From assembly GCA_035527075.1 (NCBI GenBank), contig DATLBE010000039.1, forward strand, positions 1 to 51,813: 51,813 nt of DNA, written 5' to 3'. The notes under the pieces are model-generated. The model did not search any database, was not told the DNA's origin, and saw nothing but the letters and a program-made list of their open reading frames with translations. This document shows positions 2,643 through 23,547 of the stretch, one piece after another. The translations under genes were made by a program, and so were the position numbers. Origin of the DNA: Nevskiaceae bacterium. Its GTDB lineage: Bacteria > Patescibacteriota > Microgenomatia > PFEM01. Position 1 is the stretch's first letter; each line of letters begins with the position of its first letter.

Positions 2643-2762
2643 TTATCGCTTGGGAGACTGTTTTTTGCGTCGGGCTTTGCCGCCGAGGCCGGGTTTGCGG
2701 CGTTCGCGGGCGCGGGGGTCGCGGGTAAGAAGCTTGTATTTTTTTAAAGAGGAATAATACAG
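2643..2762 (-). pseudogene. duplicated 3' fragment of rpsI (last 39 codons plus stop), no 5' part
   Basis: Hand translation in the S9 frame gives LYYSSLKKYKLLTRDPRARERRKPGLGGKARRKKQSPKR*. The intact rpsI tail at 3771-3890 reads LYHAALKKHKLLTRDPRARERRKPGLGGKARRKKQSPKR*. The offset is exactly 1128 nt. Confidence 0.85.
2686..2726. repeat. 41-nt GC-rich identical core of the rpsI-tail duplication (copy 1)
   Basis: AGGCCGGGTTTGCGGCGTTCGCGGGCGCGGGGGTCGCGGGT is identical to 3814-3854. It is 33/41 G+C and contains TCGCGGG twice, 15 nt apart. Confidence 0.85.
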
Positions 2763-3745
2763 AGTATCTTGGGAAGATAGGGTAATTGGTCAAGGCTAAA
2801 AAGGGGCAATTGAATACCGATATCCTGATTAGTATCTCCCTCGGTAGCGCTAAATAATAAAACTTTTTTTTCTTTTTTTAATCCTTCCCATTTTTGCTTG
2901 TATTCTGGGGATAAATAATTTTTCATTTCACTTTCTATTTCAAATACTCTGCGAGGGGAAACAACTGTTTCTTCTGCTATTTTCAATATTTCATTTTCCA
3001 GACCACGATTAAAGTAAGGATAATAGTAAGGATAATCATCACTTTCGAAAGGCACAAACCATTCAGCCGTCGTCTTTATCCGCTCGTATTCTCCCCAATG
3101 CAGTTTCTCTTTATACCACTCCAGCTGAAAAATAATGGCCTCCCAAATTCCTAAATCTTCAACCAGGCGACGAGCCATACTCTCTATGGGAACGTCAAAT
3201 AAATTGGCTAATTTCATTAAGAAATGAGCTCCAAAATTTGGTTCACCTGGTTTGGGAAATTTACTCACTTCTCTTTCTAATAATTCCGATGGTATTAAAA
3301 GCTCGCGGGCAAAGTTATCGCAGAAACGCTCTACTATTATTTGTCTCAAATCTTTGGGGAGATTGGGCCTTAGAAAACCGATAGAGTCTACCCTGTAAAA
3401 AAATGTATGTCCAACCTCGTGAGCGATAGTAAAACGTCTTTCCGCTGAAGAAAGTCCTTCTCTTGATGAGATTATAAAGCCGGCTTTCACTTTTCTACCA
3501 GCTAGTATGTCAGCAGTCGGTATGAGCAACCCCATAGCTGACCCATCGTAGCCAATTTTTTTCACCAACCTTCTAGCTGCAATCGGTTCTGGCTCCACAG
3601 GGAAAACTCCCCACTGCTTTGTCTCCACTAGCAATTCTTTAGCTATTCTTTCTACGCCTTCAATTGGTGATTTTTCCGAAGAAGACCGAAATTCTTCTGG
3701 AAGATAATTAAAGACAGAAGCCAATTGTCTTTCTCGATTAATCAT
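2744..3745 (-). CDS. ImmA/IrrE-family (M78-like) zinc metallopeptidase domain protein with an uncharacterised C-terminal half
   Basis: RRFTIAHEVGHTFFY (HExxH) followed by CDNFARELLIPSELL, the typical ImmA/IrrE arrangement. No Xre-type partner is adjacent. Confidence 0.65.
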   Translation of the reverse strand: MINRERQLASVFNYLPEEFRSSSEKSPIEGVERIAKELLVETKQWGVFPVEPEPIAARRLVKKIGYDGSAMGLLIPTADILAGRKVKAGFIISSREGLSSAERRFTIAHEVGHTFFYRVDSIGFLRPNLPKDLRQIIVERFCDNFARELLIPSELLEREVSKFPKPGEPNFGAHFLMKLANLFDVPIESMARRLVEDLGIWEAIIFQLEWYKEKLHWGEYERIKTTAEWFVPFESDDYPYYYPYFNRGLENEILKIAEETVVSPRRVFEIESEMKNYLSPEYKQKWEGLKKEKKVLLFSATEGDTNQDIGIQLPLFSLDQLPYLPKILCIIPL

Positions 3746-3770
3746 ACTTTAAAGGGCTTGGGTGCAAAAA

Positions 3771-4193
3771 TTAACGTTTCGGGCTTTGCTTTTTTCTTCT
3801 GGCTTTACCACCAAGGCCGGGTTTGCGGCGTTCGCGGGCGCGGGGGTCGCGGGTTAAAAGTTTGTGTTTTTTTAAAGCGGCGTGATAAAGCTCTTTGTTT
3901 TCTTTATCCAAGGCCCGAGCGACTCCGTGAACAACAGCGTCTAATTGGCCTTGTCTGCCTGAGCCAACAACTTTAATGGTAGCGTAAAATTTGCTTAGGG
4001 AATCAGTGACCTGAAAAGGTTTTTGGTATTTGGCTTTGGCAACGTCACTCGGAAAATACTCTTCAATCGGTTGATTATTAACCAAAGTTTTGCCTTTACC
4101 CCGGAAAAGTCTAACTCTAGCAGAGGCTGTCTTTCTTCGACCAACCGCGTAAACGCAAGCTTTTTTTCGGGGCTTAGATTTAGTTTTTGGCAT
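3771..4193 (-). CDS. rpsI: 30S ribosomal protein S9
   Basis: Full-length S9 with the universal C-terminal ...ARRKKQSPKR. Confidence 0.97.
   Translation of the reverse strand: MPKTKSKPRKKACVYAVGRRKTASARVRLFRGKGKTLVNNQPIEEYFPSDVAKAKYQKPFQVTDSLSKFYATIKVVGSGRQGQLDAVVHGVARALDKENKELYHAALKKHKLLTRDPRARERRKPGLGGKARRKKQSPKR
3814..3854. repeat. 41-nt GC-rich identical core of the rpsI-tail duplication (copy 2, inside intact rpsI)
   Basis: Identical to 2686-2726. Confidence 0.85.
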
Positions 4194-4611
4194 CTTTCTT
4201 CCCTAGTTTATTTTTATAAGGGTGTTTTTCATCAACAAAAATTTTTAATCTGGCTAGCCTTGGACTCCTGAGTTTGTTTTTGGGCAACATGCCGGAAACA
4301 GCATGACGGATAATTTTTCTGGGGTCCAAAGCCTGCTGTTGAGCGAAAGTAATTTCTTTAAACCCACCAGGATAGCCTGAATGGCGATAATACATTTTTT
4401 GGGCTCTTTTTTTGCCAGTCACTTTGACTTTGGCGACGTTAGTCACCACCACATAATCACCACAATCAAGATGGGAAGTATAATAGGGCTTGCTTTTGCC
4501 CATCAAAAGTAAAGCAATCCGGGAAGACAGACGCCCCAAAATTTTATCTTGGGCGTTAATAAGATGCCAACTTTTTTTGATTTCACTTTTTTTGGTTGCT
4601 TTTGTTTTCAT
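4180..4611 (-). CDS. rplM: 50S ribosomal protein L13
   Basis: MKTKATKKSEIKKSWHLINA aligns with the canonical L13 N-terminus ([20 protein letters not shown]), so the start is at Met13 of the ORF. It overlaps the rplQ end by about 29 nt. Confidence 0.93.
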   Translation of the reverse strand: MKTKATKKSEIKKSWHLINAQDKILGRLSSRIALLLMGKSKPYYTSHLDCGDYVVVTNVAKVKVTGKKRAQKMYYRHSGYPGGFKEITFAQQQALDPRKIIRHAVSGMLPKNKLRSPRLARLKIFVDEKHPYKNKLGKKDAKN

Positions 4612-4993
4612 CTTTGTCTTTTTTGCCCACCTCTTTTGGTTTCTCAACCAATTCGAGTCTCACCATCATCGCGTCATCACCTCGTCTTTTACCCAGACGG
4701 ATGATTCTGGTAAACCCACCTGGCCTTTTTTTAAAAAGAGGCGCCAACTCATCCGCAATCTTGCTAACCGCTTTCTTATTCTGTAAAAAGGCGGCGATTA
4801 GTCTTCTTGAATGAAGCGTACTAGTTTTTCCTTTAGTAATTAACTTATCCACCAAGCCGCGAATAGCTTTTGCCTTACTCTCAGTAGTTTTTATCTGGCC
4901 ATGAATCACCAAACTATTAATCAAGTTTTTAAACAGAGCCTTACGCTGAGCTCTACCCCGAGAAAGTTTTTTGCCTGAAACCCGATGCTTCAT
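4583..4993 (-). CDS. rplQ: 50S ribosomal protein L17
   Basis: L17 family sequence with a Lys-rich C-terminal tail, located after rpoA. Confidence 0.95.
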   Translation of the reverse strand: MKHRVSGKKLSRGRAQRKALFKNLINSLVIHGQIKTTESKAKAIRGLVDKLITKGKTSTLHSRRLIAAFLQNKKAVSKIADELAPLFKKRPGGFTRIIRLGKRRGDDAMMVRLELVEKPKEVGKKDKDENKSNQKK

Positions 4994-4995
4994 TT

Positions 4996-5916
4996 TTAAC
5001 CCTTCTCTTGCAACTCGATGCCTTTTTTAGCCAAGACAACCCCAATAATTTTAATTGATTTTTCACCTAAATTTTTAACTTTGGCCAAATCAGCCGGGTG
5101 AGCCGCACTCAAATCACTGACCGTCCCATAACCTCCCTTACGAAGGGCATTAACGATTCTTGTCGGCAACTCAATTTCCTCAACCGTTAGTTTCATTGCT
5201 TCGCTAGAAATAGTTTTCACCTTTTCCTTTTTTACCTTCAGCTTTTTGGGCTCAACTATTTGATTAAAAAAGGCCACTAAAGTTTTAGCTGCTTTTTTCA
5301 AAGCTTGACTGGGTTTAATCGTACCGTCAGTGGTAATTTCCAAAATCAGTCGGTCTAAATTAGCCCTTCCACCCACCCGGGTGGCTTCGACGCGATAATT
5401 AACCCTTTTTATTGGGCCAAAAGCCGCATCAACCAAAATGACGCCAATTTTTTCTGTCTTTCTTTCTTCAGCCGGCAGATAGCCAACCCCAGTTTCAACC
5501 TGGAATTCTACTTTTAATTTAGCTTTTCTGTCAGCTAAATTAGCCAAAACTTGATCTTTATTGACAATTTCTACCTGAGCTGGAGTTTTAATATCACCAG
5601 CTTTAACTTCACCCGGGCCGCTCTTTTCTAATCTTAATCTAATCGCTTTTTCCCCTTCATATCTAACTCTAATTTGCTTAATGTTTAAGATGAGTTCAAT
5701 AATATCCTCTTTTAACCCCGCCAGAGTAGAAAATTTATGTCTCACGCCACTAACCTTAACCTGGGTGATGGCGGCACCTGGCAAACTGGTCAAAAGAACA
5801 CGGCGAAGAGCATTACCTAAAGTATCACCATAACCCTGCTCTAAAGGCTCAATGATAAATTGGCCGAAATCATTGGTTTCTTTCTCTTTTTTAACTTGAA
5901 AACTGGGAACAATCAT
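4996..5916 (-). CDS. rpoA: DNA-directed RNA polymerase subunit alpha
   Basis: N-terminal domain ...GYGDTLGNALRRVLLTSLPG plus a C-terminal HhH domain. Conserved position between rpsD and rplQ. Confidence 0.96.
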   Translation of the reverse strand: MIVPSFQVKKEKETNDFGQFIIEPLEQGYGDTLGNALRRVLLTSLPGAAITQVKVSGVRHKFSTLAGLKEDIIELILNIKQIRVRYEGEKAIRLRLEKSGPGEVKAGDIKTPAQVEIVNKDQVLANLADRKAKLKVEFQVETGVGYLPAEERKTEKIGVILVDAAFGPIKRVNYRVEATRVGGRANLDRLILEITTDGTIKPSQALKKAAKTLVAFFNQIVEPKKLKVKKEKVKTISSEAMKLTVEEIELPTRIVNALRKGGYGTVSDLSAAHPADLAKVKNLGEKSIKIIGVVLAKKGIELQEKG

Positions 5917-5933
5917 GTTACCTCCTTTTTTCG

Positions 5934-6560
5934 CTACCGCGAATAGTATTCAACAATTAAGCTTTCGTCAATGTCAGTTTCAATTTCTTCTCTTTCTGGT
6001 AGACGAATCATTTTACCGACCGCCGCCTTACGTGTCAACCAGTCAGGAATTTTTCTTTCTTTTTCAGCCAAAGATTTTTTAACATAATCCAAATTTAAAC
6101 CCCCGCTTGTTAAACTAATCGTTTGGCCTGGGTTGAGCTGTTGGGAAGCAATATTCACTTTTTTGTTGCCATCAACTAAAACAAAGCCGTGGCTGACTAA
6201 TTGTCTAGCCGTTGACCGAGATGGAACAAAACCCAACCGAAAAACAACATTATCGATTCTGGACTCTAAAACCTGGAGCAAAACTTTACCTGTTCCCTCC
6301 TTAGTTTTAGAAGCTTTTTTAAAATAGCTTCTAAACTGTCTTTCTAACACTCCATAAAGTCTTTTTACCTTCTGTTTTTCGCGGAGTTGGTGGCCGTAAT
6401 CACTCATTCTCCTTCGGCGCTTTTGCCCATGCTGACCAGGGGGAACAGCGCCTTTTCTTTCTATCGGGCATTTAGGCGAATAGCAACGTTCACCTTTTAA
6501 GAAAAGCTTAATTCCTTCTCGACGACACAAACGACATTTAGCCTCTTTGTATCTGGCCAT
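5934..6560 (-). CDS. rpsD: 30S ribosomal protein S4 (Zn-ribbon type)
   Basis: MARYKEAKCRLCRREG...CYSPKC. The start is at Met22 of the ORF, 1 nt after the rpsK stop. Confidence 0.95.
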   Translation of the reverse strand: MARYKEAKCRLCRREGIKLFLKGERCYSPKCPIERKGAVPPGQHGQKRRRRMSDYGHQLREKQKVKRLYGVLERQFRSYFKKASKTKEGTGKVLLQVLESRIDNVVFRLGFVPSRSTARQLVSHGFVLVDGNKKVNIASQQLNPGQTISLTSGGLNLDYVKKSLAEKERKIPDWLTRKAAVGKMIRLPEREEIETDIDESLIVEYYSR

Positions 6561-6561
6561 T

Positions 6562-6948
6562 TCAACCTCTCTTTCTCTTTCTTGGCCTTGGTCCATTATG
6601 AGGCACAGGGGTGATATCGGCAATTAAACTCATTCTCAATCCTGCTGCCCTCATCGCTCGTAAAGCAGCATCTCTGCCTGGGCCGGGTCCTTTAATATAA
6701 ACTTCAACCTCTCTAACCCCCAAAGCCTGGGCTTTTTTAGTGACCGCCTCAACAGCGGTGGTTGAAGCGTAAGGCGTCGACTTACGAGCACCCTTAAAAC
6801 CAACCGTACCCGTTGACCCCCAACAAAGGGTATTTCCCTGAGCATCAGTAAAGGTAATCAAGGTATTGTTGAAAGTAGCGGTAATATAAACTCTGGCTTT
6901 ATTTTCATTCATTGGATTTTGTTTCTTTTTCTTTCTGACCGTCTCCAA
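6562..6948 (-). CDS. rpsK: 30S ribosomal protein S11
   Basis: ...[14 protein letters not shown]...[12 protein letters not shown]. The first codon is TTG at 6948; an ATG at 6912 is the alternative start. Confidence 0.93.
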
Positions 6949-7327
6949 ATTTGGTTAAATCTTTTTTCTTCAAAGCACCAACAGTCACTCTTTTACCTCG
7001 TTTGGTGCGAGCATTAGAACGAGTTCGTTGACCTCTAACAGGTAAATTTTGAGCGTGTCTTATCCCTTGGTAACAACCAATCGTCTTCATCCTTCTGATA
7101 TCCTCATTTATTTTTTGCCGCAAAGAGCCTTCGGTAGCCACCCGCTCCATTGCTTCCTGGAGTCGGTTTATTTCCTCACTGGTTAAGTCTTTAACTCTCT
7201 TGGCTGCATCTACTCTGGCCTTTTTTAAAACACCCACAACATTACTTCGACCAATACCATAGATGGTGGTCAAACCAATATCGACTCTTTTTTCTGTTGG
7301 TAAATCAACACCGACAATTCTGGCCAT
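6905..7327 (-). CDS. rpsM: 30S ribosomal protein S13
   Basis: [10 protein letters not shown]..., with the ATG at 7325-7327. Confidence 0.96.
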
Positions 7328-7338
7328 CACTACCCCTT

Positions 7339-7452
7339 TTACCCTTGTCTCTGTTTATGTTTAGGGTTTTCACAAATAACATAAATTCTGCCTTTTCGGC
7401 GAACAATTTTACATTTTTTACATCGTTTTTTGACACTTGCTTGGACAATCAT
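7339..7452 (-). CDS. rpmJ: 50S ribosomal protein L36
   Basis: Not in the ORF track because it is under 60 aa. Hand translation gives [37 protein letters not shown]. Its ATG overlaps the infA TGA stop (ATGA). Confidence 0.93.
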
Positions 7453-7670
7453 TTGTATCGGTAAACTATCCTCCCTCTTGTTTCATCATACGGCGTCATC
7501 TCCACCTCAACTTTATCTGCAGGCATAACTCTAATACGATGCATCCTCATTTTACCCGAAAGATGGCACAAAACTACCCTACTATCTTTTAATTTTACCC
7601 GAAACATCGTGTTAGGCAAAGCCTCGGTGACAACACCTTCAACCTCAATATTTTTTTGTTTTTTAACCAT
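7449..7670 (-). CDS. infA: translation initiation factor IF-1
   Basis: 73-aa S1-like OB fold with ...MFRVKL......CHLSGKMR...I....D.V.VE..PYD..RGRI.YR. Confidence 0.96.
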
Positions 7671-7675
7671 TCAGA

Positions 7676-8461
7676 CTATCTATCTATTTTACCAAACTCA
7701 CCACCTTTAGTCCAGCCTGAAAAAGTGAGAACTAAGGGCTTTTTTTTAGTGACAATCACCGTATCCTCAAAAAGACCAGCTAGGCTACCGTCAGCGGTTT
7801 CAATTGTCCAGTTATCCTCACCTAAAACCAAACGGGGACTGCCCTGAGTATAAATAACCTCAATCGCCAGGCTCATGCCTGGCTTAATTAAAGGTGTTTT
7901 TTTAATTTCCGTCTTAAGAAAGCAGGGAATCTGTGGTTCTTCGTGAAGTTTTTTCCCTACCCCATGCCCGGTTAAAGCTCTGACGGGGCTAAATCCAGCT
8001 TTCTTTATCTGGCTCTCAATCATCTGGGAAATATGACCAATTCTTTTTCCAACTCGGGCGACTTTAATCGCTTTACCCAAAACACTCTTGCCTGTCTCAA
8101 GAAATTCATTCACCTCCGAGGAGCCCATCCGAATACTCCTCGCCATATCCGTATGCAATCCTTTGTAAAACATTCCCATATCGAGACTAACGACATCGCC
8201 ATTTTTCAATTGGTATTCTCCGGGAATACCATGAACCACCCCTTGATTGACATTAATACAGGTTGCCCAATGGTAATCCTTAACCATCTTAAAAGAAGGT
8301 TTTCCTTTTTGTTTTTTAATGAGCGTCTCGGCTAATTGGTCAAGCTCACTTAATTTAATACCTGGCTTAACTTTGGCTAAAACCTGACCAAAAACCCATC
8401 CCAGTCTTTTGCCTCCCTCCTTCATAATCTCAATCTGTCCACTTGTTCTAATCGGAATCAT
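7676..8461 (-). CDS. map: type I methionine aminopeptidase
   Basis: Pita-bread fold motifs (...VVHGIPG..., DMG, HGVG..LHEEP) in the conserved position after adk. Confidence 0.93.
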   Translation of the reverse strand: MIPIRTSGQIEIMKEGGKRLGWVFGQVLAKVKPGIKLSELDQLAETLIKKQKGKPSFKMVKDYHWATCINVNQGVVHGIPGEYQLKNGDVVSLDMGMFYKGLHTDMARSIRMGSSEVNEFLETGKSVLGKAIKVARVGKRIGHISQMIESQIKKAGFSPVRALTGHGVGKKLHEEPQIPCFLKTEIKKTPLIKPGMSLAIEVIYTQGSPRLVLGEDNWTIETADGSLAGLFEDTVIVTKKKPLVLTFSGWTKGGEFGKIDR

Positions 8462-8988
8462 CTCCTCACCCGTTCCATAATATCTTGATGAATCTCTTCA
8501 ATTGGCCTTTCACCATCAACCTTTTCCAAAATTCCCATCTGCCGATAATAATCCAAAACTGGTTCTGTCTGATTGTGGTAAATTTTAAGTCTTTTTTTAA
8601 TCAATTCCGGCGTATCATCCTTTCGGCCTCGTTTAACCAGACGCTTGATATTCACCTCATCAGAAACGTCAAGGTAAAAAACCTCATCCACCTCAAAAGG
8701 CTGGATTTTGGCCTGACTGAGAGTTCTAGGTGAACCATCTAAAACAAACCCCTTCCGGTACTTTGGTTTTTTTATTTCTTTGCCTAAAATTTTTCTATGG
8801 TCTTTATCGCTGACTAATTCTCCTTTATCAAGAATTTTCTTAATCTTTCTTGCCAACGAAGAATTTTGCTCCGATATACACCGGTACAACTCACCAGTTT
8901 GTAAGTGAGGCAACTCAAATTCTCTTGCTAAAAGTTCTGCTTGAGTGGATTTACCTGAACCTTGGGGCCCCATGACAATAATTTTCAT
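8458..8988 (-). CDS. adk: adenylate kinase (short form, reduced LID)
   Basis: P-loop MGPQGSGKSTQAELLA. Only 176 aa. Confidence 0.92.
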   Translation of the reverse strand: MKIIVMGPQGSGKSTQAELLAREFELPHLQTGELYRCISEQNSSLARKIKKILDKGELVSDKDHRKILGKEIKKPKYRKGFVLDGSPRTLSQAKIQPFEVDEVFYLDVSDEVNIKRLVKRGRKDDTPELIKKRLKIYHNQTEPVLDYYRQMGILEKVDGERPIEEIHQDIMERVRR

Positions 8989-10275
8989 TTATTTAAGAAA
9001 ACCATCATAACTTCTCATCACCATCATTGCTTCAAGCTGCTTGGTAGTTTCTAAGATAACAGAAACGACAATTAAAATGCCGGTGCCTCCAATGGTCATC
9101 GTTGCTACGCCGGTTAAACCCTGAGCTAACGAAGGCAAAATGGCAATTAATCCCAAAAAAACCGCTCCCACCAGGGTGATTCTAGTCAGGACCCGGTTAA
9201 GATACTCAACTGTGGGTTTCCCCGGTCTAATCCCTGGAATAAAACCACCGTGTTTCTTAATCTCATCAGCAATTTTTTCGGGATTAAAGACAATCGCCGT
9301 ATAAAAATAAGTAAAACCAATCACCAGTAAAAAATAAACTAAATTATAAATCAAACCGCCAGGTTGAAAAGTTGTTGCCAAACCCCTGGCAACTTTGGCC
9401 AAAAAAGGGCTAGGAACATTCTGTAAAAAATTTCCTACCATTGAAGGCAATAAAACCAAAGAAACCGCAAAAATAATAGGAATCACCCCCGCTTGGTTAA
9501 TCCGCAAAGGCAAAAAAGTAGACTGACCACCATAAATCCGCCGACCTTTAATTCTGCGCGCGTATTGAATTCTAATTTTGCGAGACGCTTCATTAATAAA
9601 AACCACGGACGAAATCACTAAAAGACTCATTACTACAAAAGTGATTAAATTAAAAAAACCCTCTGGTTCAACCACCGCTAAAGTTTGCCAAGTTGAAACC
9701 GGAAAACGGCTGACAATCCCGGCAAAAATAATCATCGAAATTCCATTGCCAATGCCGTTTTCTGAAATTAACTCGCCTAACCACATCAAAAGAATTGTCC
9801 CGGCAGTCATGGTGGTAATAATCCCCACAAGACCCAAAGAAGAAACCGAGGTAATAATTTGTTGATTTTTTAAAAGAAAATACATTCCTAGCGCCTGTAA
9901 AGCCGCTAACGGCGCAGCTAAAAACCGGGTGTACTGATTAATTTTTTCTCGACCGTATTCGCCTTCTTGAGATAGGGCTTCAAGCTGAGGAATAACCATC
10001 GTTAAAAGCTGAAAAATAATTGAGGCATTGATGTAGGGGCCCAAGCCTAAAGCCATAATGGAAAAGTTAGCCAATGTTCCCCCTGAAAAAATATCCAAAA
10101 GGCCTAAAAGTTGGCTTTTGGCAAAAAGCTGGCGTAAAGCACTGGCATCAACTCCAGGAACAGGAATATGGGCACACAAACGAAAAATCGCAAAAACGGC
10201 GACCGTAAAAACCAATCGCTTCCTTAAGTCAGCCACCCGCCAAGCGTTTTTAATAACTGAAATTAGTTTGTTCAT
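8989..10275 (-). CDS. secY: preprotein translocase subunit SecY
   Basis: 10-TM SecY family sequence in the conserved spc-operon position. Confidence 0.96.
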
Positions 10276-10278
10276 TTT

Positions 10279-10725
10279 TTAAATTACCTTACCACCAGCT
10301 TTTTCAATTTTAAGGCTTGCTCCTCCAGAAGTGGGCAGTTCAACTTTTAAAGCGACCTTTAATTGGCCGTCGCCTAAGATTTTAACACCAAATTTTTTTG
10401 CCTCTTTTTCCAAAATAATACCCCGCTTGACCAACGTTTTAAGATTAACCTTTTCGTCTTTCTGAAAAAGATTAAGATACTTAACGTTAACGCCGATTGG
10501 CTTGGGTTTAAATGATTTAAATTTTCCTTTCCCACGTTTTAGCGGCAAGCGTTTAAGGAACGATTTTCTTGTTTTGGTGCCGGCAAAACTTAAAGCCACC
10601 TTACTCCGTGCCTTAGTGCCTTTACTACCCCGACCAACAGTATGGCCACCCTTGCCAGAACCATAGCCTCGGCCGAGTCGTTTTTTAGATTTTTTGGTTG
10701 TTTTTGGTAACTTATCAAGCTTCAT
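10279..10725 (-). CDS. rplO: 50S ribosomal protein L15
   Basis: [22 protein letters not shown] motif. Confidence 0.95.
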
Positions 10726-12029: not shown

Positions 12030-12033
12030 TTTT

Positions 12034-12423: not shown

Positions 12424-12429
12424 AGTTTT

Positions 12430-14174: not shown

Positions 14175-14176
14175 AG

Positions 14177-14581: not shown

Positions 14582-14630
14582 TTTTTTTGAGCTTGCGAAA
14601 AACAAGGTTCCCCGCCGTAGGTGGGGGTTC

Positions 14631-15284: not shown

Positions 15285-15286
15285 AA

Positions 15287-15646: not shown

Positions 15647-15652
15647 GATAGT

Positions 15653-15934
15653 TTAAGTTTTGGTAATAATTCTTTTAACCATCCGACCATGACCTCTGAA
15701 TGTCCTGGTAGGTGCAAACTCTCCTAGACGATGGCCGACCATAGCCTCAGTGACAAAAACATCAACAAAAGCCCGACCATTATGAACCTGAAAAATATGG
15801 CCAACGAACTCAGGCGGAATTTGGCTGGCTCTTGCCCAGGTTTTAATTGGCTCTTTTTTACCTGACTTCTGAGCCATTACTTTTTTCAGCAATTTTTCGT
15901 CTACATATGGTCCTTTTTTACTTGATCGACCCAT
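15653..15934 (-). CDS. rpsS: 30S ribosomal protein S19
   Basis: [15 protein letters not shown]...HNGR.F..V. Confidence 0.97.
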
Positions 15935-15935
15935 T

Positions 15936-16679
15936 TTACTTTCTTCTCTTAAGAATTAACTTGTCAGAATATTTCTTTTTTTTTCTTGTTTTTTTACCTA
16001 AGGTTTTCTTACCCCAGGGGGATTTTGGGCTGGGCATACCAATGCCCGACTTTCCCTCACCGCCACCATGAGGATGAGATCCAGGATGTTGGGCAACACC
16101 TCGAACTGTTGGTCTGATTCCCATGTGCCTTTTTCGGCCAGCTTTGCCAATTTTTTCAGTTTTAAGCTCAGCTCTACTCAATTGACCAATGGTCGCAAAA
16201 CAAGCCAAGGGAATTCTTCTTACCTCTCCAGAGGGCAGTTTAAGATTGGCAAAGCCTGATTCCTTTGCCTGGACAACCGCCCCTGTTCCCGCACCTCGAG
16301 CCAATTGGCCACCTTTACCTGGAGCTAGCTCAATATTATGAACTAAAGTGCCCACGGGAATTTTTTTCAAAGGTAAAGCATTACCTACTTTAGGCTCTGC
16401 TTTTTTTCCAGAAACCAGCCAATCACCAACTTTTAAATCTTTTGGCGCTAAAATATAGCGCTTTTCACCGTCTTTGTAAACTAGCAAGGCAATATCGGCA
16501 GTCCGATTAGGATCGTATTCAATCGAAACTACCCGAGCCTTAATATCGTGTTTGTTTCTGACAAAATCAATTCTCCGCAAGAATCGTTTTTGCCGACCGC
16601 CTTGATGGCGAACCGTAATTTGACCACTGGCGTTTCGACCAGAATTTTTAGGTAAAATTTTTAAAAGTTTTTTACTCAT
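15936..16679 (-). CDS. rplB: 50S ribosomal protein L2 (N-terminally short)
   Basis: [16 protein letters not shown]...HPHGGGEGK. It lacks roughly the first 28 aa of E. coli L2. Confidence 0.95.
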
Positions 16680-16990
16680 TTTTTCTTTATTTCCCTTTCT
16701 TCAGGAGCAGCTAAAATATCAATTTTTTCTCCCTCAGCTAATTGAACTAATGCTTTTTTCCAATTACCCGTTTTCACCTCTCTTTTACCAGAACCCACTT
16801 TTCTTGTTTTGCCTTTGGCCATCATTGTCCAAGCTGCCTTAACTTTCACTTTGAAAAACTTTTCCACAGCCTGTTTAATCTCTTTTTTAGTTGCCTGACG
16901 AGCAACTTGAAAAGTATATTTATTACCCTCCAGCCATCTGGTAGTTTTTTCAGTAATAATCGGCTTTTTGACAACCTTGATCAAATCCAT
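16676..16990 (-). CDS. rplW: 50S ribosomal protein L23
   Basis: [10 protein letters not shown]..., in the conserved position. Confidence 0.94.
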
Positions 16991-17610
16991 GTTTTCTCCA
17001 ACTTAGAAACTGCTTCTTCCATTAAAACCATCTTGCCACCATTCAAAACTGCAAAAGTATTTAATAAATCAGCTTGAATTAAATTCAACTTTTCAATATT
17101 TTGGCCAGCCCGAAATACATTGTCTAGTTTGGCAGGCATGACTAATAAAGTTTTTAACTGCTCTAATTGCAAATTTTTCAATACCCTGGCCATTTCCTTT
17201 GTCTTCGGTTTCACTTTAGCAAGACCACTTACCACCAAAATTTCTTTATCCTTAAGCTTGGCGCTTAAGGACGAAAAAAGCGCAGCCCGCTTCATTTTTT
17301 TACTCATTTCTAATTTAAAATTTTGGTTGCCTCTTGGCCCATGGGCAACACCGCCACCAACAAAAATTGGTGCATAACGATCACCATGACGAGCCCGTCC
17401 TGTCCCTTTTTGGCGCCAAATCTTTCTACCCGAACCAGAAACCTCTCCGCGGCTTTTGGTTTTGGCATGAACCTTTCTTTGATTAGTCAAATAAACTTTA
17501 ATTGCTTGGGCCATGAGCGGCTCATTAACTTTGGCCGCAAAAATCCTTGGAGGAAGATTAATTTCCCCTGATTTTTTACCGCTGGTGTTTAACAAGGCTA
17601 TTTTAGGCAT
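16981..17610 (-). CDS. rplD: 50S ribosomal protein L4
   Basis: ...RKIWRQKGTGRARHGD.... Confidence 0.96.
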   Translation of the reverse strand: MPKIALLNTSGKKSGEINLPPRIFAAKVNEPLMAQAIKVYLTNQRKVHAKTKSRGEVSGSGRKIWRQKGTGRARHGDRYAPIFVGGGVAHGPRGNQNFKLEMSKKMKRAALFSSLSAKLKDKEILVVSGLAKVKPKTKEMARVLKNLQLEQLKTLLVMPAKLDNVFRAGQNIEKLNLIQADLLNTFAVLNGGKMVLMEEAVSKLEKTWI

Positions 17611-18214
17611 TTTGTTTTCTAATAATTAAAAAACCGTTTTTAGGACCAGGCAATAAGCCCTTAATTTCTAACAAATTATTCTTATCATCAACCTCAGTGA
17701 CTGTTAAACCAGAAATAGTCACTTTTTGACCACCAGCCCTACCAGGCATTTTTTTGCCCTTGTATACTCGACCAGGTGTCGTCCCTTGACCAATTGAACC
17801 TGGCGCTCTTTGCCGATCTGACTGGCCATGAGTTCTTGGGCCGCCTTTAAAACCCCATCTTTTCATCACACCAGTAAAACCCTTACCTTTTGACTGACCC
17901 GTCACTTTTACCTTGTCACCCACTTTAAAAACTTGACCGACTTTTATTTCATCTCCAATTTTAAGTCTGGGCAACTTGTCAACTCTGAATTCTCTCAAAA
18001 ATTTAGGAGCCGTTTTTGATTTGGCTCCTTTTTTTGGCTTTACTTTCTTTTCACCGAATCCAAACTGAATTGCGTTATAGCCATCCTTGCCAAGAGTTTT
18101 AATTTTGGCCACCTTGCAAGGGCCAGCCATAACCTGACTGACCGGCATTCGCCAGCCTGCTTTGTCAAATTTTTGAACCATATCAAGTTTTGTTCCTAAA
18201 ATTGCGTTTGTCAT
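17603..18214 (-). CDS. rplC: 50S ribosomal protein L3
   Basis: ...FKGGPRTHGQSDRQRAPGSIG.... Confidence 0.96.
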   Translation of the reverse strand: MTNAILGTKLDMVQKFDKAGWRMPVSQVMAGPCKVAKIKTLGKDGYNAIQFGFGEKKVKPKKGAKSKTAPKFLREFRVDKLPRLKIGDEIKVGQVFKVGDKVKVTGQSKGKGFTGVMKRWGFKGGPRTHGQSDRQRAPGSIGQGTTPGRVYKGKKMPGRAGGQKVTISGLTVTEVDDKNNLLEIKGLLPGPKNGFLIIRKQNA

Positions 18215-18245
18215 TTTCCCTTTATCCTGAACGTAGTCGAGGACA

Positions 18246-18270
18246 CCAAAAAGAGTGCCGGAGGCACTCT
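18246..18270 (-). terminator. intrinsic-terminator-like hairpin (possible attenuator) in the rplC leader
   Basis: Minus strand reads AGAGUGCC-UCC-GGCACUCU, a perfect 8-bp stem, followed by UUUUU. It lies about 32 nt upstream of the rplC ATG. Confidence 0.45.
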
Positions 18271-18338
18271 GATTTCAGACTCCTTTAATAAACTAAGCCT
18301 TTATGACGAGCTTATCACCTCCATTTTAAGATAGGGAA

Positions 18339-18367
18339 ATTATATAACATTAGCCACGAAGATGCAA
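18339..18367 (-). promoter_or_regulatory. sigma70-like promoter facing rplC
   Basis: Minus strand reads TTGCAT (18367-18362), a 17-nt spacer, then TATAAT (18344-18339). It lies immediately downstream of the rpsJ tail fragment. Confidence 0.4.
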
Positions 18368-18375
18368 GAAGAAAA

Positions 18376-18432
18376 TTACATTTTTATTTCTATATCAACG
18401 CCTGCCGGAAGGTCAAGGTGCACGAGAGAGTC
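18376..18432 (-). pseudogene. duplicated 3' fragment of rpsJ (last 18 codons plus stop)
   Basis: Translates to [18 protein letters not shown] versus [18 protein letters not shown] in intact rpsJ (19288-19344). The offset is 912 nt and 51/57 nt are identical by hand alignment. Of the 5 sense-codon differences, 4 are synonymous. Confidence 0.85.
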
Positions 18433-18435
18433 ATA

Positions 18436-18444
18436 TGATAAAAT
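18436..18444 (+). promoter_or_regulatory. extended -10 element (TGaTAAAAT) upstream of the nucleotidyltransferase gene
   Basis: TGATAAAAT lies about 28 nt upstream of the ATG at 18473. There is no convincing -35. Confidence 0.3.
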
Positions 18445-18472
18445 AATCATAGAAGCGGGAAAATTGGGCAGT

Positions 18473-19285
18473 ATGACTAATCCTAAAATCATCATTTCCA
18501 GGTTAAAAAAAGAATTAGAAAAAAACCCCCTTGTAGTTGGGCTAGTTTTAGTGGGCTCACAAATAAGAAAGACCATTTACATTGCCAACTCTTATTCGGA
18601 CATGGAAGTTTATATCATTGTCAAGGACGGCAATGAGGAAAAAATTGAGAAACAATTACCTAGTTTAGTGAATAAATTAGGTAAAGTGATTTTTTCTTAT
18701 AAAAATCAATGGGCGGGTTTTTCGACAGTTTTCGAAAATTTATTTAGGTTAGAACTACCAATCGTTAAACTTTCTGAGATAAATTCGGTTTTTTCTCGAC
18801 CAACCACTCAACCCGTTAAGGCTCTTATCGACAAAACTAATGGCCGACTGGATAAAGCCTTGACATCTCGCCCTAAAACTCTGAATTTCCAAAAATTGTT
18901 CCAAGATAAAGTAGTTGATTTCTGGTATATGGCTATTGTGGCTATCCAATATTATAAAAAGGATGAAGTCTATAATGCCCGCAAAGCACTTCATTTAATT
19001 CAATCTTCGCTCATTAAATTCTTTGAACTTTTAAATGACCCCAAAATATTACTCCTAGAAACAAACAAAATGATTGAACAATTCTTATCTCCACCACAAA
19101 TTAAACTACTTAAAGAAATAAGCCCTTCTTATGAGAAAAGCCAAATAAAACAAGCGCTGATTGGAACGATAAATATTTTTTCCGATGTGACAAAAGAAAT
19201 ATCAAAGAAACACAATTATAACTACCGCAGAGAAATCGAAAAAAAGATAAAGTCAAAACTTTTAAGACATTTGGCTGAGAATTGA
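18473..19285 (+). CDS. nucleotidyltransferase, ANT(6)/AadK-like (aminoglycoside 6-adenylyltransferase family fold)
   Basis: From Met38 of the ORF: VVGLVLVGSQ...SDMEVYIIV (GS...DxE), RLELPIV (third acidic residue), VKALIDK, and FWYMAIVAIQYY...ALHLIQSSLIKF. By recall these align with AadK motifs LEGSR...DYDISYFV, LDLTLIP, VKVLLDK and FWMVSTYVVKG. The first 37 ORF codons are antisense to the rpsJ fragment and are probably not translated. Confidence 0.6.
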   Translation: MTNPKIIISRLKKELEKNPLVVGLVLVGSQIRKTIYIANSYSDMEVYIIVKDGNEEKIEKQLPSLVNKLGKVIFSYKNQWAGFSTVFENLFRLELPIVKLSEINSVFSRPTTQPVKALIDKTNGRLDKALTSRPKTLNFQKLFQDKVVDFWYMAIVAIQYYKKDEVYNARKALHLIQSSLIKFFELLNDPKILLLETNKMIEQFLSPPQIKLLKEISPSYEKSQIKQALIGTINIFSDVTKEISKKHNYNYRREIEKKIKSKLLRHLAEN

Positions 19286-19287
19286 GA

Positions 19288-19596
19288 CTACATTTTTATC
19301 TCAATATCAACACCTGCAGGAAGGTCAAGGTGCATGAGAGAGTCAATTGTTTTATCAGTGGGTTCTAAAATGTCAATCAGGCGTTTGTGGGTTAGAATTT
19401 GAAAGTGTTCGCGGGCGTCTTTGTCAGTAAAAGGAGAAGTAGTGACGGTAATGAGTTTTCTTTTAGTGGGTAGGGGCACTGGCCCCACCACCTTGGCTCC
19501 TGTAACCAAGGCTGTCTCGAGAATTTTCTCGCAACTTTCATCAATAACTCGATGATCGTACGATTTTAAACGTACTCTGATTCTGCCTTTTGGCAT
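19288..19596 (-). CDS. rpsJ: 30S ribosomal protein S10
   Basis: [17 protein letters not shown]...[14 protein letters not shown]. Confidence 0.97.
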
Positions 19597-19598
19597 TT

Positions 19599-20792
19599 TT
19601 AGGCAATTATTTTACTTATTACCCCTGCACCGACTGTGTGGCCGCCTTCACGAATAGCAAACCGCAAACCTTCTTCTGAAGCGACCGGTTGTATGAGTTT
19701 GACAGTCATTTTGGCATTATCACCAGGCATAACCATTTCTACCCCTTTAGGCAAGGTAACTTCGCCAGTAACATCCGTTGTCCGGATGTAAAATTGTGGC
19801 TTGTAACCAGAAAAAAATGGTGTGTGTCGACCACCTTCTTCTTTGGTCAAAATATAAACTTCTGCCTCAAATTCAGTATGAGGCGTCACTGAGCCTGTTT
19901 TAGCCAAAACTTGACCACGTTCAACATCGTCTTTCTCAACTCCTCTTAGAAGAATACCGACATTGTCACCCGCTTGACCTTCATCAAGTGATTTTCTAAA
20001 CATTTCCACACCAGTGACCACGGTTGAGACAGTCTTTTTAATACCAACAATCTCGATAGTGTCATTAACCTTGACTTTGCCTCGCTCAATCCGCCCGGTG
20101 ACGACTGTTCCCCGACCTTTGATGGAAAAAACATCTTCAATTGGCATCAAGAAAGGCTTTTCGGTATCCCGCTTGGGCGTAGGAATATACTCATCGATAG
20201 CTTTAACGAGAGCTAAAATATTTTTTTCTTCTTCAGGATCACCTTCCATTGCCTTTAAAGCTGACCCACGAATAATTGGAGTCTTATCACCCGGATACTT
20301 GTATTTGGTCAAAACTTCCCGGATTTCCATTTCGACCAAATCAAGCAACTCCGGATCTTTAACCATATCCACTTTATTCAAAAATACAACCACAGCCGGC
20401 ACATTCACTTGCCGGGCGAGCAAAATGTGCTCCCGGGTTTGAGGCATAGGCCCATCATCAGCGGCCACCACCAAAATAGCGCCGTCCATTTGGGCCGCGC
20501 CGATAATCATGTTTTTGATGTAGTCTTTATGACCAGGGCAGTCAATATGAGCATAGTGCCGCTTTTCTGTCTCAAATTCAGCGTGATAAATGTCAATGGT
20601 AATACCTCGCTCTCTTTCTTCAGGCGCCTTATCAATATCTTCAAAAGCCAACGCTTGAGTGGAATTATCTTGCTGTTTGGCCAGGACTCTGGTAATCGCC
20701 GAAGTTAAAGTTGTCTTACCGTGGTCAACATGACCAATCGTGCCAATATTAATATGCGGTTTTTTTCTTTCAAATTTTGCTTTTTCTGCCAT
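19599..20792 (-). CDS. tuf: elongation factor Tu
   Basis: [19 protein letters not shown]. Strong SD sequence AAGGAGG upstream. Confidence 0.98.
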
Positions 20793-20821
20793 ATTTCCTC
20801 CTTTTTAATAAGTAATTGATA

Positions 20822-20850
20822 ATTCTACAGGATTATTTCTTTTTTTTCAA
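20822..20850 (-). promoter_or_regulatory. possible internal promoter for tuf
   Basis: Minus strand reads TTGAAA (20850-20845), a 17-nt spacer, then TAGAAT (20827-20822), in the fusA-tuf spacer. Confidence 0.35.
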
Positions 20851-20867
20851 GCCCCGCAAAATCTCGC

Positions 20868-23018
20868 TTATTTCTCAACCGGTTTACCCATTTTGGCAGC
20901 CACAATTTTTTCTGTAATATTGGCGGGTGTTTCTTGATAATGGGATGGCTCCATATAAAAACTTGCCCGTCCCTGGGTTAAACTGCGCAACATCGTCGAG
21001 TAACCCCGAACCTCAGCCAATGGAATCAAAGCAGTAATAATTCTAACCGCCTCTCTCACTTGGGTATCTAAAATTTGGGCTCTTTTGCTAGATAAGTCAC
21101 CAATCACTTCACCCATAAATTTTTCTGGCGTGGTCACTTCAAGCCTCATAATTGGCTCAAGCAAAACTAGGTTAGCTCTCTTAACTGCCTCCTGAACGGC
21201 AACTGAACCGGCAATTTTAAAAGCAATTTCTGAAGAATCAACCTCATGGTAGCTACCATCATAGACCGCCACCATCATATCTACCAAAGGATAGCCAGCC
21301 AATACCCCTTTTTCCATCGCCTCTTTAACCCCCTTTTCAATAGCTGGAATAAATTCAGAAGGAATGGCTGTCCCTCGAATCTCGTTTTTAAACTCAAAAC
21401 CTTCACCGCGCTGCTTGGGCTCAACCCGTAAAAAACAATGGCCATATTGACCCCGACCGCCTGACTGGCGAATGTACTTACCTTCGGCCGCGGCTGTTTT
21501 TTGAATGGTTTCTTTATAAGCAACCTGGGGTTGTCCAGTGTTGGACAAAACATTGAATTCCCGCTTCATCCGGTCAACCAAAATCTCTAAGTGAAGTTCA
21601 CCCATGCCAGAAATGATAGTCTGGCCTGTTTCCCGATCAGTTTTAATCTTAAAAGTAGGATCTTCTTCAGAAAGCCTTTTTAAAGCATAGCCTAATTTTT
21701 CCTGATCAGCCTTGGTTTTTGGCTCAATGGCCAGAGAAATCACTGGCTCAGGAAAGGCAATTGATTCTAAAAGAATGGGTTTGTCTTTTTGACATAGAGT
21801 ATCACCGGTGGTGGTTTCTTTCAACCCAACCACGGCTACAATCTCGCCGGCCATAGTGGAGCCAATCATTTCTCGCTGATTAGCGTGCATCAAAAGAAGT
21901 CTGCCAGCTCGCTCCTGGCGATGCTGGGTGCTATTCCAAACTGTTTCACCTGACTTTAAAGTACCTGAATAAATCCTCAAATAAGTCAACCTGCCAACAT
22001 GAGGATCAGTTTGAATTTTAAAAGCAAGAGCGGCAAAAGGGCCATTAGGATCAGTTTCTCTGGTTTCTTTTTGGTTTGTTTCAGAATTAATACCTTCAAT
22101 CACCGGCACATCAAGCGGGCTGGGCAGAAAATTAACCACACCATCAAGCATAACCTGAACGCCTTTATTTCGGAGCGAAGCCCCACAGTAAACCGGCACA
22201 AACTTATTGGCAATCGTGGCTTTTCTTAATGCCTTTTTCAACTCTACCACCGAAACCTCTTCTCCTACTAAATATTTATCCATTAATTTTTCATCGTTTT
22301 CAGCAATCTTTTCCACCAACTCTTCTCTTGTCTTTTTAAGTTGCTTTCTTAAGTCTCCAGGCACTGCCACTTCTTGAAATTTTTCACCAGTTTCATCATC
22401 TTCAGGCCAAATTAAAGCTTTTTCTTCCAAAACCAAAACCACCCCTCGAAAATCTTTCTCCTTGCCAATGGGTAAGGTCATAATCGCCGGCTTGGCTCCC
22501 AATCTATCTTCAACCATCTGTACTGTCCGGTCAAAATTAGCGCCTAACTTGTCCATTTTATTGATAAAACAAATTCGAGGTACTTGGTATTTATCCGCCT
22601 GGCGCCAGACTGTTTCTGACTGAGACTGAACCCCTTCTTCAGCATCAAAAACAACCACTCCGCCATCCAAAACTCGCAAAGAGCGTTCCACTTCGGCGGT
22701 AAAATCAATGTGGCCAGGCGTGTCAATGATATTAATACGGTAAGAATCTTTGGGAACTGCTCCCTCTTCTTTAAGCATCCAAAAAGTTGTCGTCGCTGCC
22801 GACATGATGGTAATTCCCCTTTCTTTCTCTTGTTCCATCCAATCCATTTGGGTCGTACCCTCATCAATGTCACCAATTTTGTAAGTTCTGCCAGTGTAAT
22901 AAAGGATTCGCTCAGTGGTGGTAGTTTTACCAGCATCAATATGGGCAATAATCCCAATATTACGGATTTTTTCCAAAGGGACAATTCTTTTTTTGACGGT
23001 TTCGCTTACTTCTGCCAT
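20868..23018 (-). CDS. fusA: elongation factor G
   Basis: [10 protein letters not shown]...[16 protein letters not shown]. The start is at Met23 of the ORF. Confidence 0.97.
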
Positions 23019-23031
23019 ATTTCTATTATAT

Positions 23032-23057
23032 AAAAAACCGCTTCCTAAAAGAAGCAG
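23032..23057 (-). terminator. intrinsic terminator-like hairpin between the small membrane gene and fusA
   Basis: Minus strand reads CUGCUUC-UUUUAG-GAAGCGG, a 7-bp stem with one G.U pair, followed by UUUUUU. The U-run ends 13 nt before the fusA ATG. Confidence 0.45.
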
Positions 23058-23158
23058 TTCAAAGCTTCGAAAGTATTTTAACAAAAACTGAAGAATGATT
23101 CAAGCAAAAAAAACGGTGGGTAACCTTAACATGACTGTTTTGGCTGCCCGCCAGAGGG

Positions 23159-23395
23159 TTATTCCTGGCTCTTCAGCCTGTCTTTCGTTTTCCGAACTCC
23201 AGCCCTGCCGAAGGCCGGTAATAGCCTAAGCATTACCACAATCACCACAATGCCCAAGACTGTAGCATAAGGCTTTGTGTTGGTCTCGCTTGGTGGTGCC
23301 GGCGTGAATGGTTTCCAAATACCCCCCTCATATGCTATGGTCGACCCGATGACCACCAACAAAAGGAAAAAAACCACTCCCACTAATTGCTTCAT
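23159..23395 (-). CDS. small hypothetical membrane protein (78 aa, two predicted TM helices)
   Basis: MKQLVGVVFFLLLVVIGSTIA...YATVLGIVVIVVMLRLLPAF. A strong SD (AGGGAGGAAAGTA-ATG) precedes Met25 of the ORF. The region looks more GC-rich than its neighbours by eye. Confidence 0.6.
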   Translation of the reverse strand: MKQLVGVVFFLLLVVIGSTIAYEGGIWKPFTPAPPSETNTKPYATVLGIVVIVVMLRLLPAFGRAGVRKTKDRLKSQE

Positions 23396-23438
23396 TACTT
23401 TCCTCCCTAAATGCTGTTGGAAAAGAGCCACTAGTAAC

Positions 23439-23467
23439 AATATATCATAAACTATAGGATTTATCAA
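23439..23467 (-). promoter_or_regulatory. sigma70-like promoter with extended -10 for the small membrane gene
   Basis: Minus strand reads TTGATA (23467-23462), a 17-nt spacer, then TGaTATATT (-10 at 23444-23439). Confidence 0.45.
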
Positions 23468-23547
23468 GCAGGGGAGGCAGAGAGACTACCAACGAAAATA
23501 AGAACCTTTCGCTTTGCTCAAGAACCTTGTTTCATCTGGCAGCCTTG

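Follow-up and report, generated by a model that had tools for sequence, protein, structure and literature searches.

Displaced gene tails bracket accessory genes in the ribosomal operon of a Microgenomates bacterium and recur in related lineages

Candidate Phyla Radiation (CPR) bacteria have tiny genomes and generally few recognisable mobile elements. Despite this, variable accessory genes are present at the loci examined here, and a 51.8-kb contig of a Microgenomates (CPR) bacterium (DATLBE010000039.1) raises the question of how such genes come to lie directly behind some of the most conserved genes of translation. This contig, hereafter the window, is the whole stretch of DNA that was analysed, and all whole-window searches were made within it. 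Its minus strand carries an operon that runs rpoB, rpoC, rpsL, rpsG, fusA, tuf, rpsJ, rplC ... rpoA, rplQ, rplM, rpsI. A repeat search of the entire window (seed 12, minimum 30 nt) yielded only two substantial direct repeats, and both consist of the last codons and the stop of a ribosomal protein gene: the rpsI tail (2642-2762 versus 3770-3890, 121 nt, 81% identity) and the rpsJ tail (18377-18433 versus 19289-19345, 57 nt, 91% identity). Each pair brackets a single gene. No further repeat longer than 37 nt or above 80% identity was found, so chance is not a credible explanation, and the tail duplications that a first-pass annotation of this DNA had described around inserts after rpsI and rpsJ are real. 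The same arrangement of tail, cargo and tail is present in independent ENA, JGI and Logan assemblies. Contigs L128 and L129 start within the repeated tail, as though assembly had broken there.

At the rpsI site the cargo shares the strand of the operon and begins 25 nt past the rpsI stop. Its product matches PF06114 (Pfam, E 1.6e-9), finds CapP as its top defence-system profile (PADLOC, E 1.4e-15) and carries the HExxH motif as AHEVGH, in the form AHE[VI]GH that is invariant across the alignment, which places it in the M78 peptidase family. The ImmA-like gene with a tail duplication that had been proposed to follow rpsI is borne out by this Pfam match and by the 121-nt repeat. The AlphaFold2 model is of moderate confidence only for residues 1-200 (block-mean pLDDT, the predicted local distance difference test score, mostly 60-90), and the C-terminal 130 residues fall below 50. 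A gene for an adjacent helix-turn-helix repressor substrate of the ImmR, CapH or DdrO kind was found neither in the window, where the neighbours are rpsI and a methyltransferase gene, nor at the related loci L029-L031. The final codon and the stop of the M78 gene fall within the displaced tail copy B, which reads in the -1 frame relative to that gene. The gene lacks one codon and runs into the tail at CTTTAAAAAAA; both partners contain this string, which makes the join a microhomology junction. That a frameshift out of the M78 gene might lead to translation of copy B was considered and ruled out, there being no canonical slippery site and, in L030, a 40-nt gap with stops.

At the rpsJ site the cargo is antisense to the operon, its stop is 2 nt away from that of rpsJ, and the displaced copy B is contiguous with the native rpsJ-rplC spacer. 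The 132 homologues of this nucleotidyltransferase in Microgenomates are 267-270 aa long, which places the true start at ATG 18473 and not at that of the called 307-aa open reading frame (ORF; 18362..19285). The latter begins within the reverse complement of the tail copy, and its first 37 codons (18362-18472) are largely displaced rpsJ tail and flank; the 307-aa start is an annotation artefact that has been carried into the public gene calls of identical contigs. The protein scores 29 bits against the NCBIfam ANT_6 equivalog, for which the cut-off is 420, and only the Pfam domain PF04439 is assigned; no resistance function is therefore attributed to it. The earlier description of an ANT(6)-like gene with a tail duplication thus holds for the 57-nt duplication, while the kinship to ANT(6) is only distant and the start had been miscalled. 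A conserved position for the nucleotidyltransferase was also considered and rejected, since in 15 representative genomes and two metagenome contigs it occupies other contexts and never stands between rpsJ and rplC. Its relatives elsewhere lie in ordinary chromosomal contexts and are flanked by neither tail. Two separate observations concern these homologues. In another patescibacterial contig (L024, equal to L151; 3872-5798) one follows rplM, rpsI and tRNA-Pro, with no tail copy detected there. In two further contigs, non-coding direct repeats of 60-90 nt and ~80% identity bracket a homologue together with its neighbour gene or genes (L015:2892-2973/4396-4482; L023:3052-3111/5809-5867).

The inserts carry no recognisable means of movement. 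Neither an integrase, a transposase, a tRNA gene nor an Rfam family was found in the window (Pfam scans of cargo, flanking and remaining genes; Rfam), and there are no inverted repeats at the insert ends of the rpsI and rpsJ sites. The earlier statement that no integrase, transposase, inverted repeat or short target duplication is visible agrees with these searches. An insertion sequence or transposon would differ in two respects: terminal inverted repeats are lacking, and the duplications, at 18 to ~120 nt and diverged, are not short. The sites had also been placed inside an uninterrupted translation unit, which has to be corrected, as both are operon boundaries: rpsI is the last gene of the array, and the rpsJ-rplC spacer holds a terminator-like hairpin of eight pairs followed by a T run, 37 nt before rplC. 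This spacer measures 100-250 nt in most Microgenomates loci in which rplC was located, which suggests that it is a leader or attenuator region and an operon boundary. The features of the window and the related repeat units are collected in Table 1.

Table 1 Features of the rpsI, rpsJ and rpsG sites in the window and loci of the 115-nt unit in related genomes.
Feature	Coordinates	Strand	Evidence or remark
rpsI (ribosomal protein S9), intact	3771..4193	-	ORF and translation; Pfam Ribosomal_S9 on the identical L009 gene; final gene of the array
rpsI tail copy A, proximal, functional (35 codons + stop)	3771..3878	-	Repeat search, alignment, codon comparison
Cargo 1, 333-aa ImmA/IrrE/CapP-like M78 metallopeptidase	2744..3745	-	Pfam PF06114, PADLOC CapP
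rpsI tail copy B, displaced (35 codons + stop, without start codon)	2643..2750	-	Repeat search, alignment
Methyltransferase gene beyond copy B and spacer	1845..2609		
rpsJ (ribosomal protein S10), intact	19288..19596	-	Last 57 nt (19288-19344) are tail copy A
Cargo 2, 270-aa PF04439 nucleotidyltransferase	18473..19285	+	Pfam E 1.3e-15; antisense to operon
rpsJ tail copy B, displaced (18 codons + stop)	18376..18432	-	Repeat search, alignment
Native rpsJ-rplC spacer	18215..18375	-	Terminator-like hairpin at 18252-18270
rpsG	23548..24027	-	
rpsG-side spacer with orphan 78-aa two-transmembrane ORF (23159..23395)	23159..23547	-	
115-nt unit, L139	3406-3753		
115-nt unit, L145	3411-3528		
115-nt unit, L186	3488-3604		
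115-nt unit, L205	6209-6390		

The two copies of each tail differ almost exclusively at synonymous sites. Copies A and B of the rpsI tail differ synonymously at 13 codons and non-synonymously at two, both at the 5' edge; those of rpsJ differ synonymously at five codons and by one M/V difference that is polymorphic among strains. When the 12 displaced rpsI tails recovered from the window and its relatives are pooled, 91 of the 99 differing codons are synonymous and eight are non-synonymous. The last six codons contribute 72 comparisons with 47 synonymous and no non-synonymous differences, and the codons further upstream contribute 110 comparisons with 44 synonymous and eight non-synonymous differences, all of these toward the 5' edge; stop changes, too, are confined to that edge or its vicinity. 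In a simulation of random substitution, amino acid changes as few as these arose in at most 0.4% of runs for every pair tested. The near-exclusively synonymous differences indicate that the displaced copies were once the working tails of other lineages and are not decaying local duplicates. Both copies are thus xenologous, and the relationship named in advance as refuting, with the copies each other's nearest relatives as after local duplication, is not what is seen. The pairs are also mosaic. In the rpsI pair a perfect 41-nt block (3814-3854, identical to 2686-2726) is followed by 15 codons of which 10 differ, and in L030 a perfect block of ~20 nt adjoins a 3' part with saturated synonymous sites. 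Judged by the codons that the ribosomal genes of the window use, the functional copies are a better fit than their displaced counterparts, the margin being ~10 bits at rpsI and ~3 bits at rpsJ.

Displaced tails recur in related genomes and at the same genes, as the first-pass annotation had anticipated in proposing a search for tail duplications flanking variable cargo: at rpsI 12 displaced tails occur in nine lineages, at rpsJ they occur in two lineages and at fusA in one. The only M78 homologues at ~40% identity (L029, L030 and L031) likewise follow rpsI directly, and the tail remnants linked to them, in frame with their stop, are of six codons in L029, 21 in L030 and nine in L031. The M78 genes of L029 and L031 share 91% nucleotide identity, yet each leads through a different tail remnant into different downstream DNA. 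A search of representative genomes with the M78 protein returned only distant proteins (~30% identity) in unrelated phyla. The serine codon of the QSPKR motif is AGY in all four M78-linked functional tails and TCN in all four displaced copies, and TCN is used in most genomes without a displaced tail downstream. As a marker of foreign tails this codon was discarded as unclean, since AGC is used by the M78-free L134, whose rplM-rpsI region shares 79% nucleotide identity with L029.

Among 79 representative rpsI loci, five (L139, L145, L186, L187 and L205) have one or more displaced tails, with cargo that includes a TrpR-like gene, a 474-aa ORF and a laccase-domain gene beside a tRNA gene. A 118-aa ORF in L205 (5852-6208) combines an unrelated N-terminal part with 34 final residues identical to the C-terminus of its own S9, from which it differs at 17 nucleotides, all synonymous; it may encode a chimeric protein with an S9 tail that reaches the P site, or it may be a displaced tail that the ORF caller read through. 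A corresponding survey of rpsJ covered 80 representative Microgenomates genomes. About one-fifth of those in which both flanking genes were located have 0.6-2 kb of unrelated one- or two-gene cargo between rpsJ and rplC. By Pfam this cargo comprises an acyltransferase, an AAA_14/DUF4143 ATPase, Fic, a CAP-domain protein, an Asp/Glu racemase, a peptide deformylase, a cation efflux protein and an FtsJ-like methyltransferase; other ORFs at this junction look, from their sequences, like HicAB-type and DUF433-type modules and a NUDIX protein. In L076 a 41-nt copy of the rpsJ tail lies beyond a 291-aa antisense gene, and all four of its differences are synonymous.

The fusA case comes from a member of the Gottesmanbacteria (L075:330-1260), in which the fusA tail is duplicated around an antisense toxin-antitoxin pair of a PIN and a MazE/AbrB protein. 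The last eight codons of the copy have synonymous changes only, and three amino acid changes lie at its 5' edge. The pattern is thus not limited to small-subunit protein genes, and the claim that inserts follow only such genes fails on this tail as well as on the inserts at two other junctions: 0.5-2 kb between fusA and tuf in nine of 39 genomes, and 0.4-2.5 kb between tuf and rpsJ in ~5 of ~76 (both L045-L124). In Microgenomates, interruptions of the str/S10 region by accessory genes are widespread. Two scans for tail copies were made on the fetched loci, which are centred on ribosomal operons: one with the C-terminal seven residues of ORFs of at least 90 aa in all loci, allowing one mismatch, and one with the last four residues and the stop of 2,991 ORFs after removal of redundant window-lineage loci. 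Both gave clear copies only at rpsI, at rpsJ and at the one fusA. Among the cargo ORFs scanned with Pfam no recombinase turned up, nor did the gene calls for M78 loci and window-lineage loci contain one.

Contigs with identical S10 present three states of the rpsJ site: the nucleotidyltransferase insert, a different gene on the minus strand (L008) and an empty site (L007). In the empty site the rpsJ stop leads straight into the spacer that in the window comes after copy B. The identity of this 1.2-kb contig to the window is 89% over tuf and rpsJ, 84-86% to either tail, and 95% over the spacer and rplC; the step from 89% to 95% in this single contig would place a recombination breakpoint, and with it a change of ancestry, at the tail. 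Taken together, the data show that each event joined the DNA of two lineages inside the tail and that the displaced copy is contiguous with native downstream DNA. A smaller change was seen at the same junction in L003 (3355-3385) and also in L004 and L005, where a 13-nt tandem duplication, GAGATAAAAATGT, lies exactly at the rpsJ stop and converts TAG to TGA, which shows that slippage is still going on there.

A 115-nt unit, present once or in tandem arrays of up to three, stands directly 3' of rpsI in four divergent Microgenomates genomes. It forms a long hairpin and terminates, in every copy, in a duplicate of the last 10-11 codons of S9 and the stop, with the RRKK codons paired to bases just past the stop. 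Compensatory changes affect 11 of the 32 predicted pairs. The tail copies are re-coded at synonymous sites only, bar one decayed copy. The unit has no Rfam match, and a covariance model search found it in only these four genomes among 84 sources. Possible identities are a small mobile element and a 3' regulatory RNA.

The explanation that fits best, to which we give about an even chance, is recombinase-free, homology-guided insertion of cassettes that replaces the gene tail, with the tail serving as homology arm or as microhomology junction. It corresponds to the last of three options offered by the first-pass annotation (decayed integrative elements, cassettes mobilised in trans, or cargo brought in by homologous recombination with the conserved tail as one arm), and of the three it fits best. 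Small cassettes without mobility genes would enter by recombination within the 3' end of a very conserved translation gene. The incoming DNA, from another Microgenomates lineage, would supply a working replacement tail beside the cargo, and the other tail copy would be displaced to the far side of the cargo while still joined to its native downstream DNA. A dedicated recombinase would not be required. The first junction would form by homologous pairing in the conserved gene. The second, within the short tail, could form by pairing with a cassette-borne tail copy as second homology arm or, alternatively, by a microhomology join such as that in homology-facilitated illegitimate recombination (HFIR) after DNA uptake. 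The resulting unit of gene tail, cargo and tail could then move to naive relatives by two crossovers in the same gene, and every such move would refresh the displaced copy in its 3' part, using a tail that had been functional until recently. The architecture, its recurrence, the xenologous origin of the copies, the empty site and the lack of a recombinase in cis are observed; inferred are the enzymology, with RecA-type recombination or joining by microhomology following transformation, and the direction in which each transfer went.

Homology-guided insertion explains why tail lengths vary, why a microhomology junction occurs, why a decayed 5' edge is combined with an intact 3' end, why divergence steps at the empty site and why the most conserved genes are chosen; the tandem arrays would follow from unequal pairing of tail copies. 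The diverse one- and two-gene cargo at the most conserved junctions (fusA-tuf and rpsJ-rplC), which includes PIN/MazE and HicAB-like modules, counts in its favour. Gene content differs between the same flanks in close relatives, and mobility genes are absent, as in minimal mobile elements. To our knowledge minimal mobile elements have not been described as leaving a duplicated gene tail, and we know of no link drawn between HFIR and tail duplications that arise naturally and repeatedly at ribosomal genes. Cultivated CPR bacteria have been shown to be naturally competent and to carry out homologous recombination (PMC10633639).

Several observations weigh against this explanation. The demonstrated competence is that of Saccharibacteria and not of Microgenomates, and tails that are 30-60 nt long and 65-90% identical make poor substrates for RecA. 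Codon usage points to copy B, not copy A, as the less host-like one. The tail of the empty L007 site is no nearer to copy B than to copy A, so that the native copy is not singled out, and a contig of 1.2 kb could be an assembly chimera. An empty rpsI site was not obtained: exact look-ups of the rpsI and methyltransferase proteins returned insert-bearing contigs or contigs starting within the repeat, and a single metagenome scan with the methyltransferase found no close relative and no empty site. A perfect core with diverged arms is also the classic picture of the left and right attachment sites (attL and attR) of an integrated element. Eight displaced rpsI tails, accompanied by four kinds of cargo, have their start 9-11 codons ahead of the stop, and such a near-constant position fits a site-specific cut better, with the limit that five of the eight belong to one repeat family. 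Finally, the tandem 115-nt arrays, each unit ending in a tail copy, resemble site-specific accretion.

The last three points lead to the main rival, which is unlikely but the strongest of the alternatives. It holds that the inserts are non-autonomous integrative cassettes, either similar to cis-mobilizable elements (CIMEs) or exploiting Xer, and that a site-specific recombinase acting in trans, with its gene elsewhere in the genome or on a helper element, joins a tail-like attP to the 3' end of the gene, so that the two tails are attL and attR. Besides the core-and-arms structure of the pairs, the recurrent start of displaced rpsI tails and the hairpin arrays in four divergent genomes, the constant position of the M78 family at rpsI, even at 40% identity, speaks for it. 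There is also direct precedent. In Streptococcus, integrative and conjugative elements (ICEs), integrative mobilizable elements (IMEs) and their decayed derivatives (CIMEs) occur integrated in the 3' ends of rpsI, rplL, rpmG, fda or tRNA genes, and tyrosine integrases use those of rpsI, rplL and rpmG (PMC4701971). The likeness to those elements extends to the class of target, rpsI included, to the reconstituted 3' end with a partial copy at the far end as direct repeat, to possible tandem accretion and to an ImmA-type peptidase as typical content (PMC4701971). The direct repeats of the window (121 and 57 nt) likewise derive from the 3' end of the target and leave rpsI and rpsJ intact. Tail targeting of ribosomal genes is therefore not new in itself, and the earlier view that it was undescribed for ribosomal protein genes must be narrowed, since streptococcal ICEs use rpsI, rplL and rpmG (PMC4701971).

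Against recombination in trans stands, in the first place, the missing enzyme: no tyrosine or serine integrase or DDE transposase was found by Pfam in the window or the scanned related cargo, nor any recombinase gene in the gene calls of the M78 and window-lineage loci, and neither the rpsI nor the rpsJ tail pattern matched viral contigs, which could have supplied an attP. Displaced rpsI tails measure 6, 9-11, 21 and 34-36 codons, and three different genes are used, which a single fixed attachment site would not yield. The cargo families are unrelated, and a conserved cassette end was not found. The M78 junction of the window is a truncating join of microhomology type, and the closest relatives of the nucleotidyltransferase stand in ordinary chromosomal contexts without tails. 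Unlike the streptococcal ICEs, the cassettes described here have no integrase, excisionase, relaxase or conjugation gene, carry one or two genes (~0.9-1.1 kb), have repeats of 18 to ~120 nt with synonymously saturated arms, use fusA as well and reside in CPR hosts.

A second rival, which we consider improbable, is repair of double-strand breaks at a hot spot. The 3' end of the gene would be broken by a fragile hairpin or by a nuclease such as a free-standing homing endonuclease, and repair from a diverged, cargo-bearing allele would co-convert a re-coded, cut-resistant tail and leave the old tail downstream. A similar outcome is reportedly known from endonuclease-bearing mitochondrial genes of fungi, such as the hybrid gene atp6 of Allomyces (Paquin et al. 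1994), in which an intact gene with a foreign 3' end is followed by an inserted ORF and by the displaced native 3' end as a pseudogene fragment; there the cargo is said to be the driving endonuclease, whereas here the scanned cargo ORFs match no nuclease family bar the PIN-domain toxin, several being without any Pfam match. The complete synonymous re-coding of the functional tail relative to the displaced one is what nuclease-immune alleles would show, and the conserved hairpin pairs the RRKK codons with sequence just past the rpsI stop; distant donors explain the synonymous saturation equally well. The window does contain a LAGLIDADG-like ORF (43126..44010), and CPR rRNA genes are described as rich in homing-endonuclease insertions (PMC11270868); the ORF lies 20 kb off and is unlinked.

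The weakest alternative, a purely local duplication by slippage or template switching at insertion with neutral decay thereafter, or a spare copy kept as a translated or RNA element, is very improbable: the lineage-specific residues encoded by both copies (for example PGQMGKARKKK in L030), the in-frame fusion of a tail copy to the 118-aa ORF of L205 and the slippage evident from the 13-nt duplication at the rpsJ stop speak for it, whereas neutral decay cannot yield 91 synonymous against eight non-synonymous differences, copy B, both in the window and in L030, lacks a start codon and does not share the frame of the M78 gene, synonymous variation argues against constraint at the nucleotide level, and copy B of the window fits host codon usage poorly.

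Homology-guided insertion has relatives among established mechanisms. Minimal mobile elements of Neisseria are cassettes without mobility genes that lie between conserved flanks and are exchanged by transformation and homologous recombination (Saunders and Snyder 2002; PMC3787668), and the diverse cargo at rpsJ-rplC, at fusA-tuf and after rpsI resembles them. In the present case both crossovers may fall in one gene, with the tail copy travelling with the cassette. HFIR uses one homologous anchor and a 3-10 bp microhomology join at the other end (PMC6382021). It would explain the variable positions of the junctions and the CTTTAAAAAAA junction of the M78 gene, and it differs from the natural duplications in being defined in the laboratory, in Acinetobacter, Streptococcus and Pseudomonas. 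The CPR-related literature searched contained no description of such tail-flanked cassettes, which differ from known tail targeting in the absence of a recombinase in cis, the one- or two-gene cargo, the variable and synonymously saturated repeats, the use of fusA and the CPR hosts.

A wider and more tentative proposal, with a lower chance of being correct than homology-guided insertion itself, is that 'tail-armed cassettes', composed of a tail, cargo and a spare tail and needing no recombinase of their own, spread accessory genes through Microgenomates and perhaps through the CPR. The near-invariant last codons of ribosomal and elongation-factor genes would act as universal homology arms across deeply diverged lineages, and the spare tail would be renewed at each hop; the 115-nt unit would be a minimal, cargo-free member and the M78 gene a cargo specialised for rpsI. 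If this is true, conserved gene ends are landing pads that provide a simple route of gene flow between very divergent lineages, perhaps a general one in this group, and the proposal would explain why its ribosomal super-operon, a region that is normally more stable than any other in a genome, contains so many accessory genes, toxin-antitoxin modules and modification enzymes among them. It would also account for wrong ORF calls, such as the 307-aa nucleotidyltransferase and the chimeric S9-tail ORF of L205, and for contigs that start inside the repeated tail (L128 and L129). Displaced tails would be datable scars with which transfer events could be counted and oriented, and the mechanism is testable, some CPR bacteria being transformable.

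The third insert proposed by the first-pass annotation, after rpsG, holds only in part. The rpsG-fusA gap is unusually long (~530 nt versus 15-53 nt in three other Microgenomates) and does contain a small ORF with two transmembrane segments. No rpsG tail repeat was found downstream of rpsG, where the most that can be recognised is a possible four-codon remnant, YFRW* (the asterisk marks the stop), at 23486..23500(-), 62 nt past the rpsG stop; by an uncorrected hand estimate its chance occurrence within a 0.5-kb gap is ~0.003. The ORF had no homologue but itself among 5.8 billion proteins and was rejected as a conserved gene, leaving an orphan and a weak case. Elsewhere in the window, the free-standing LAGLIDADG_3 (homing-endonuclease-like) ORF at 43126-44010 is 294 aa long and is encoded on the minus strand, with a uracil-DNA glycosylase gene on one side and a Lon-like AAA gene on the other.

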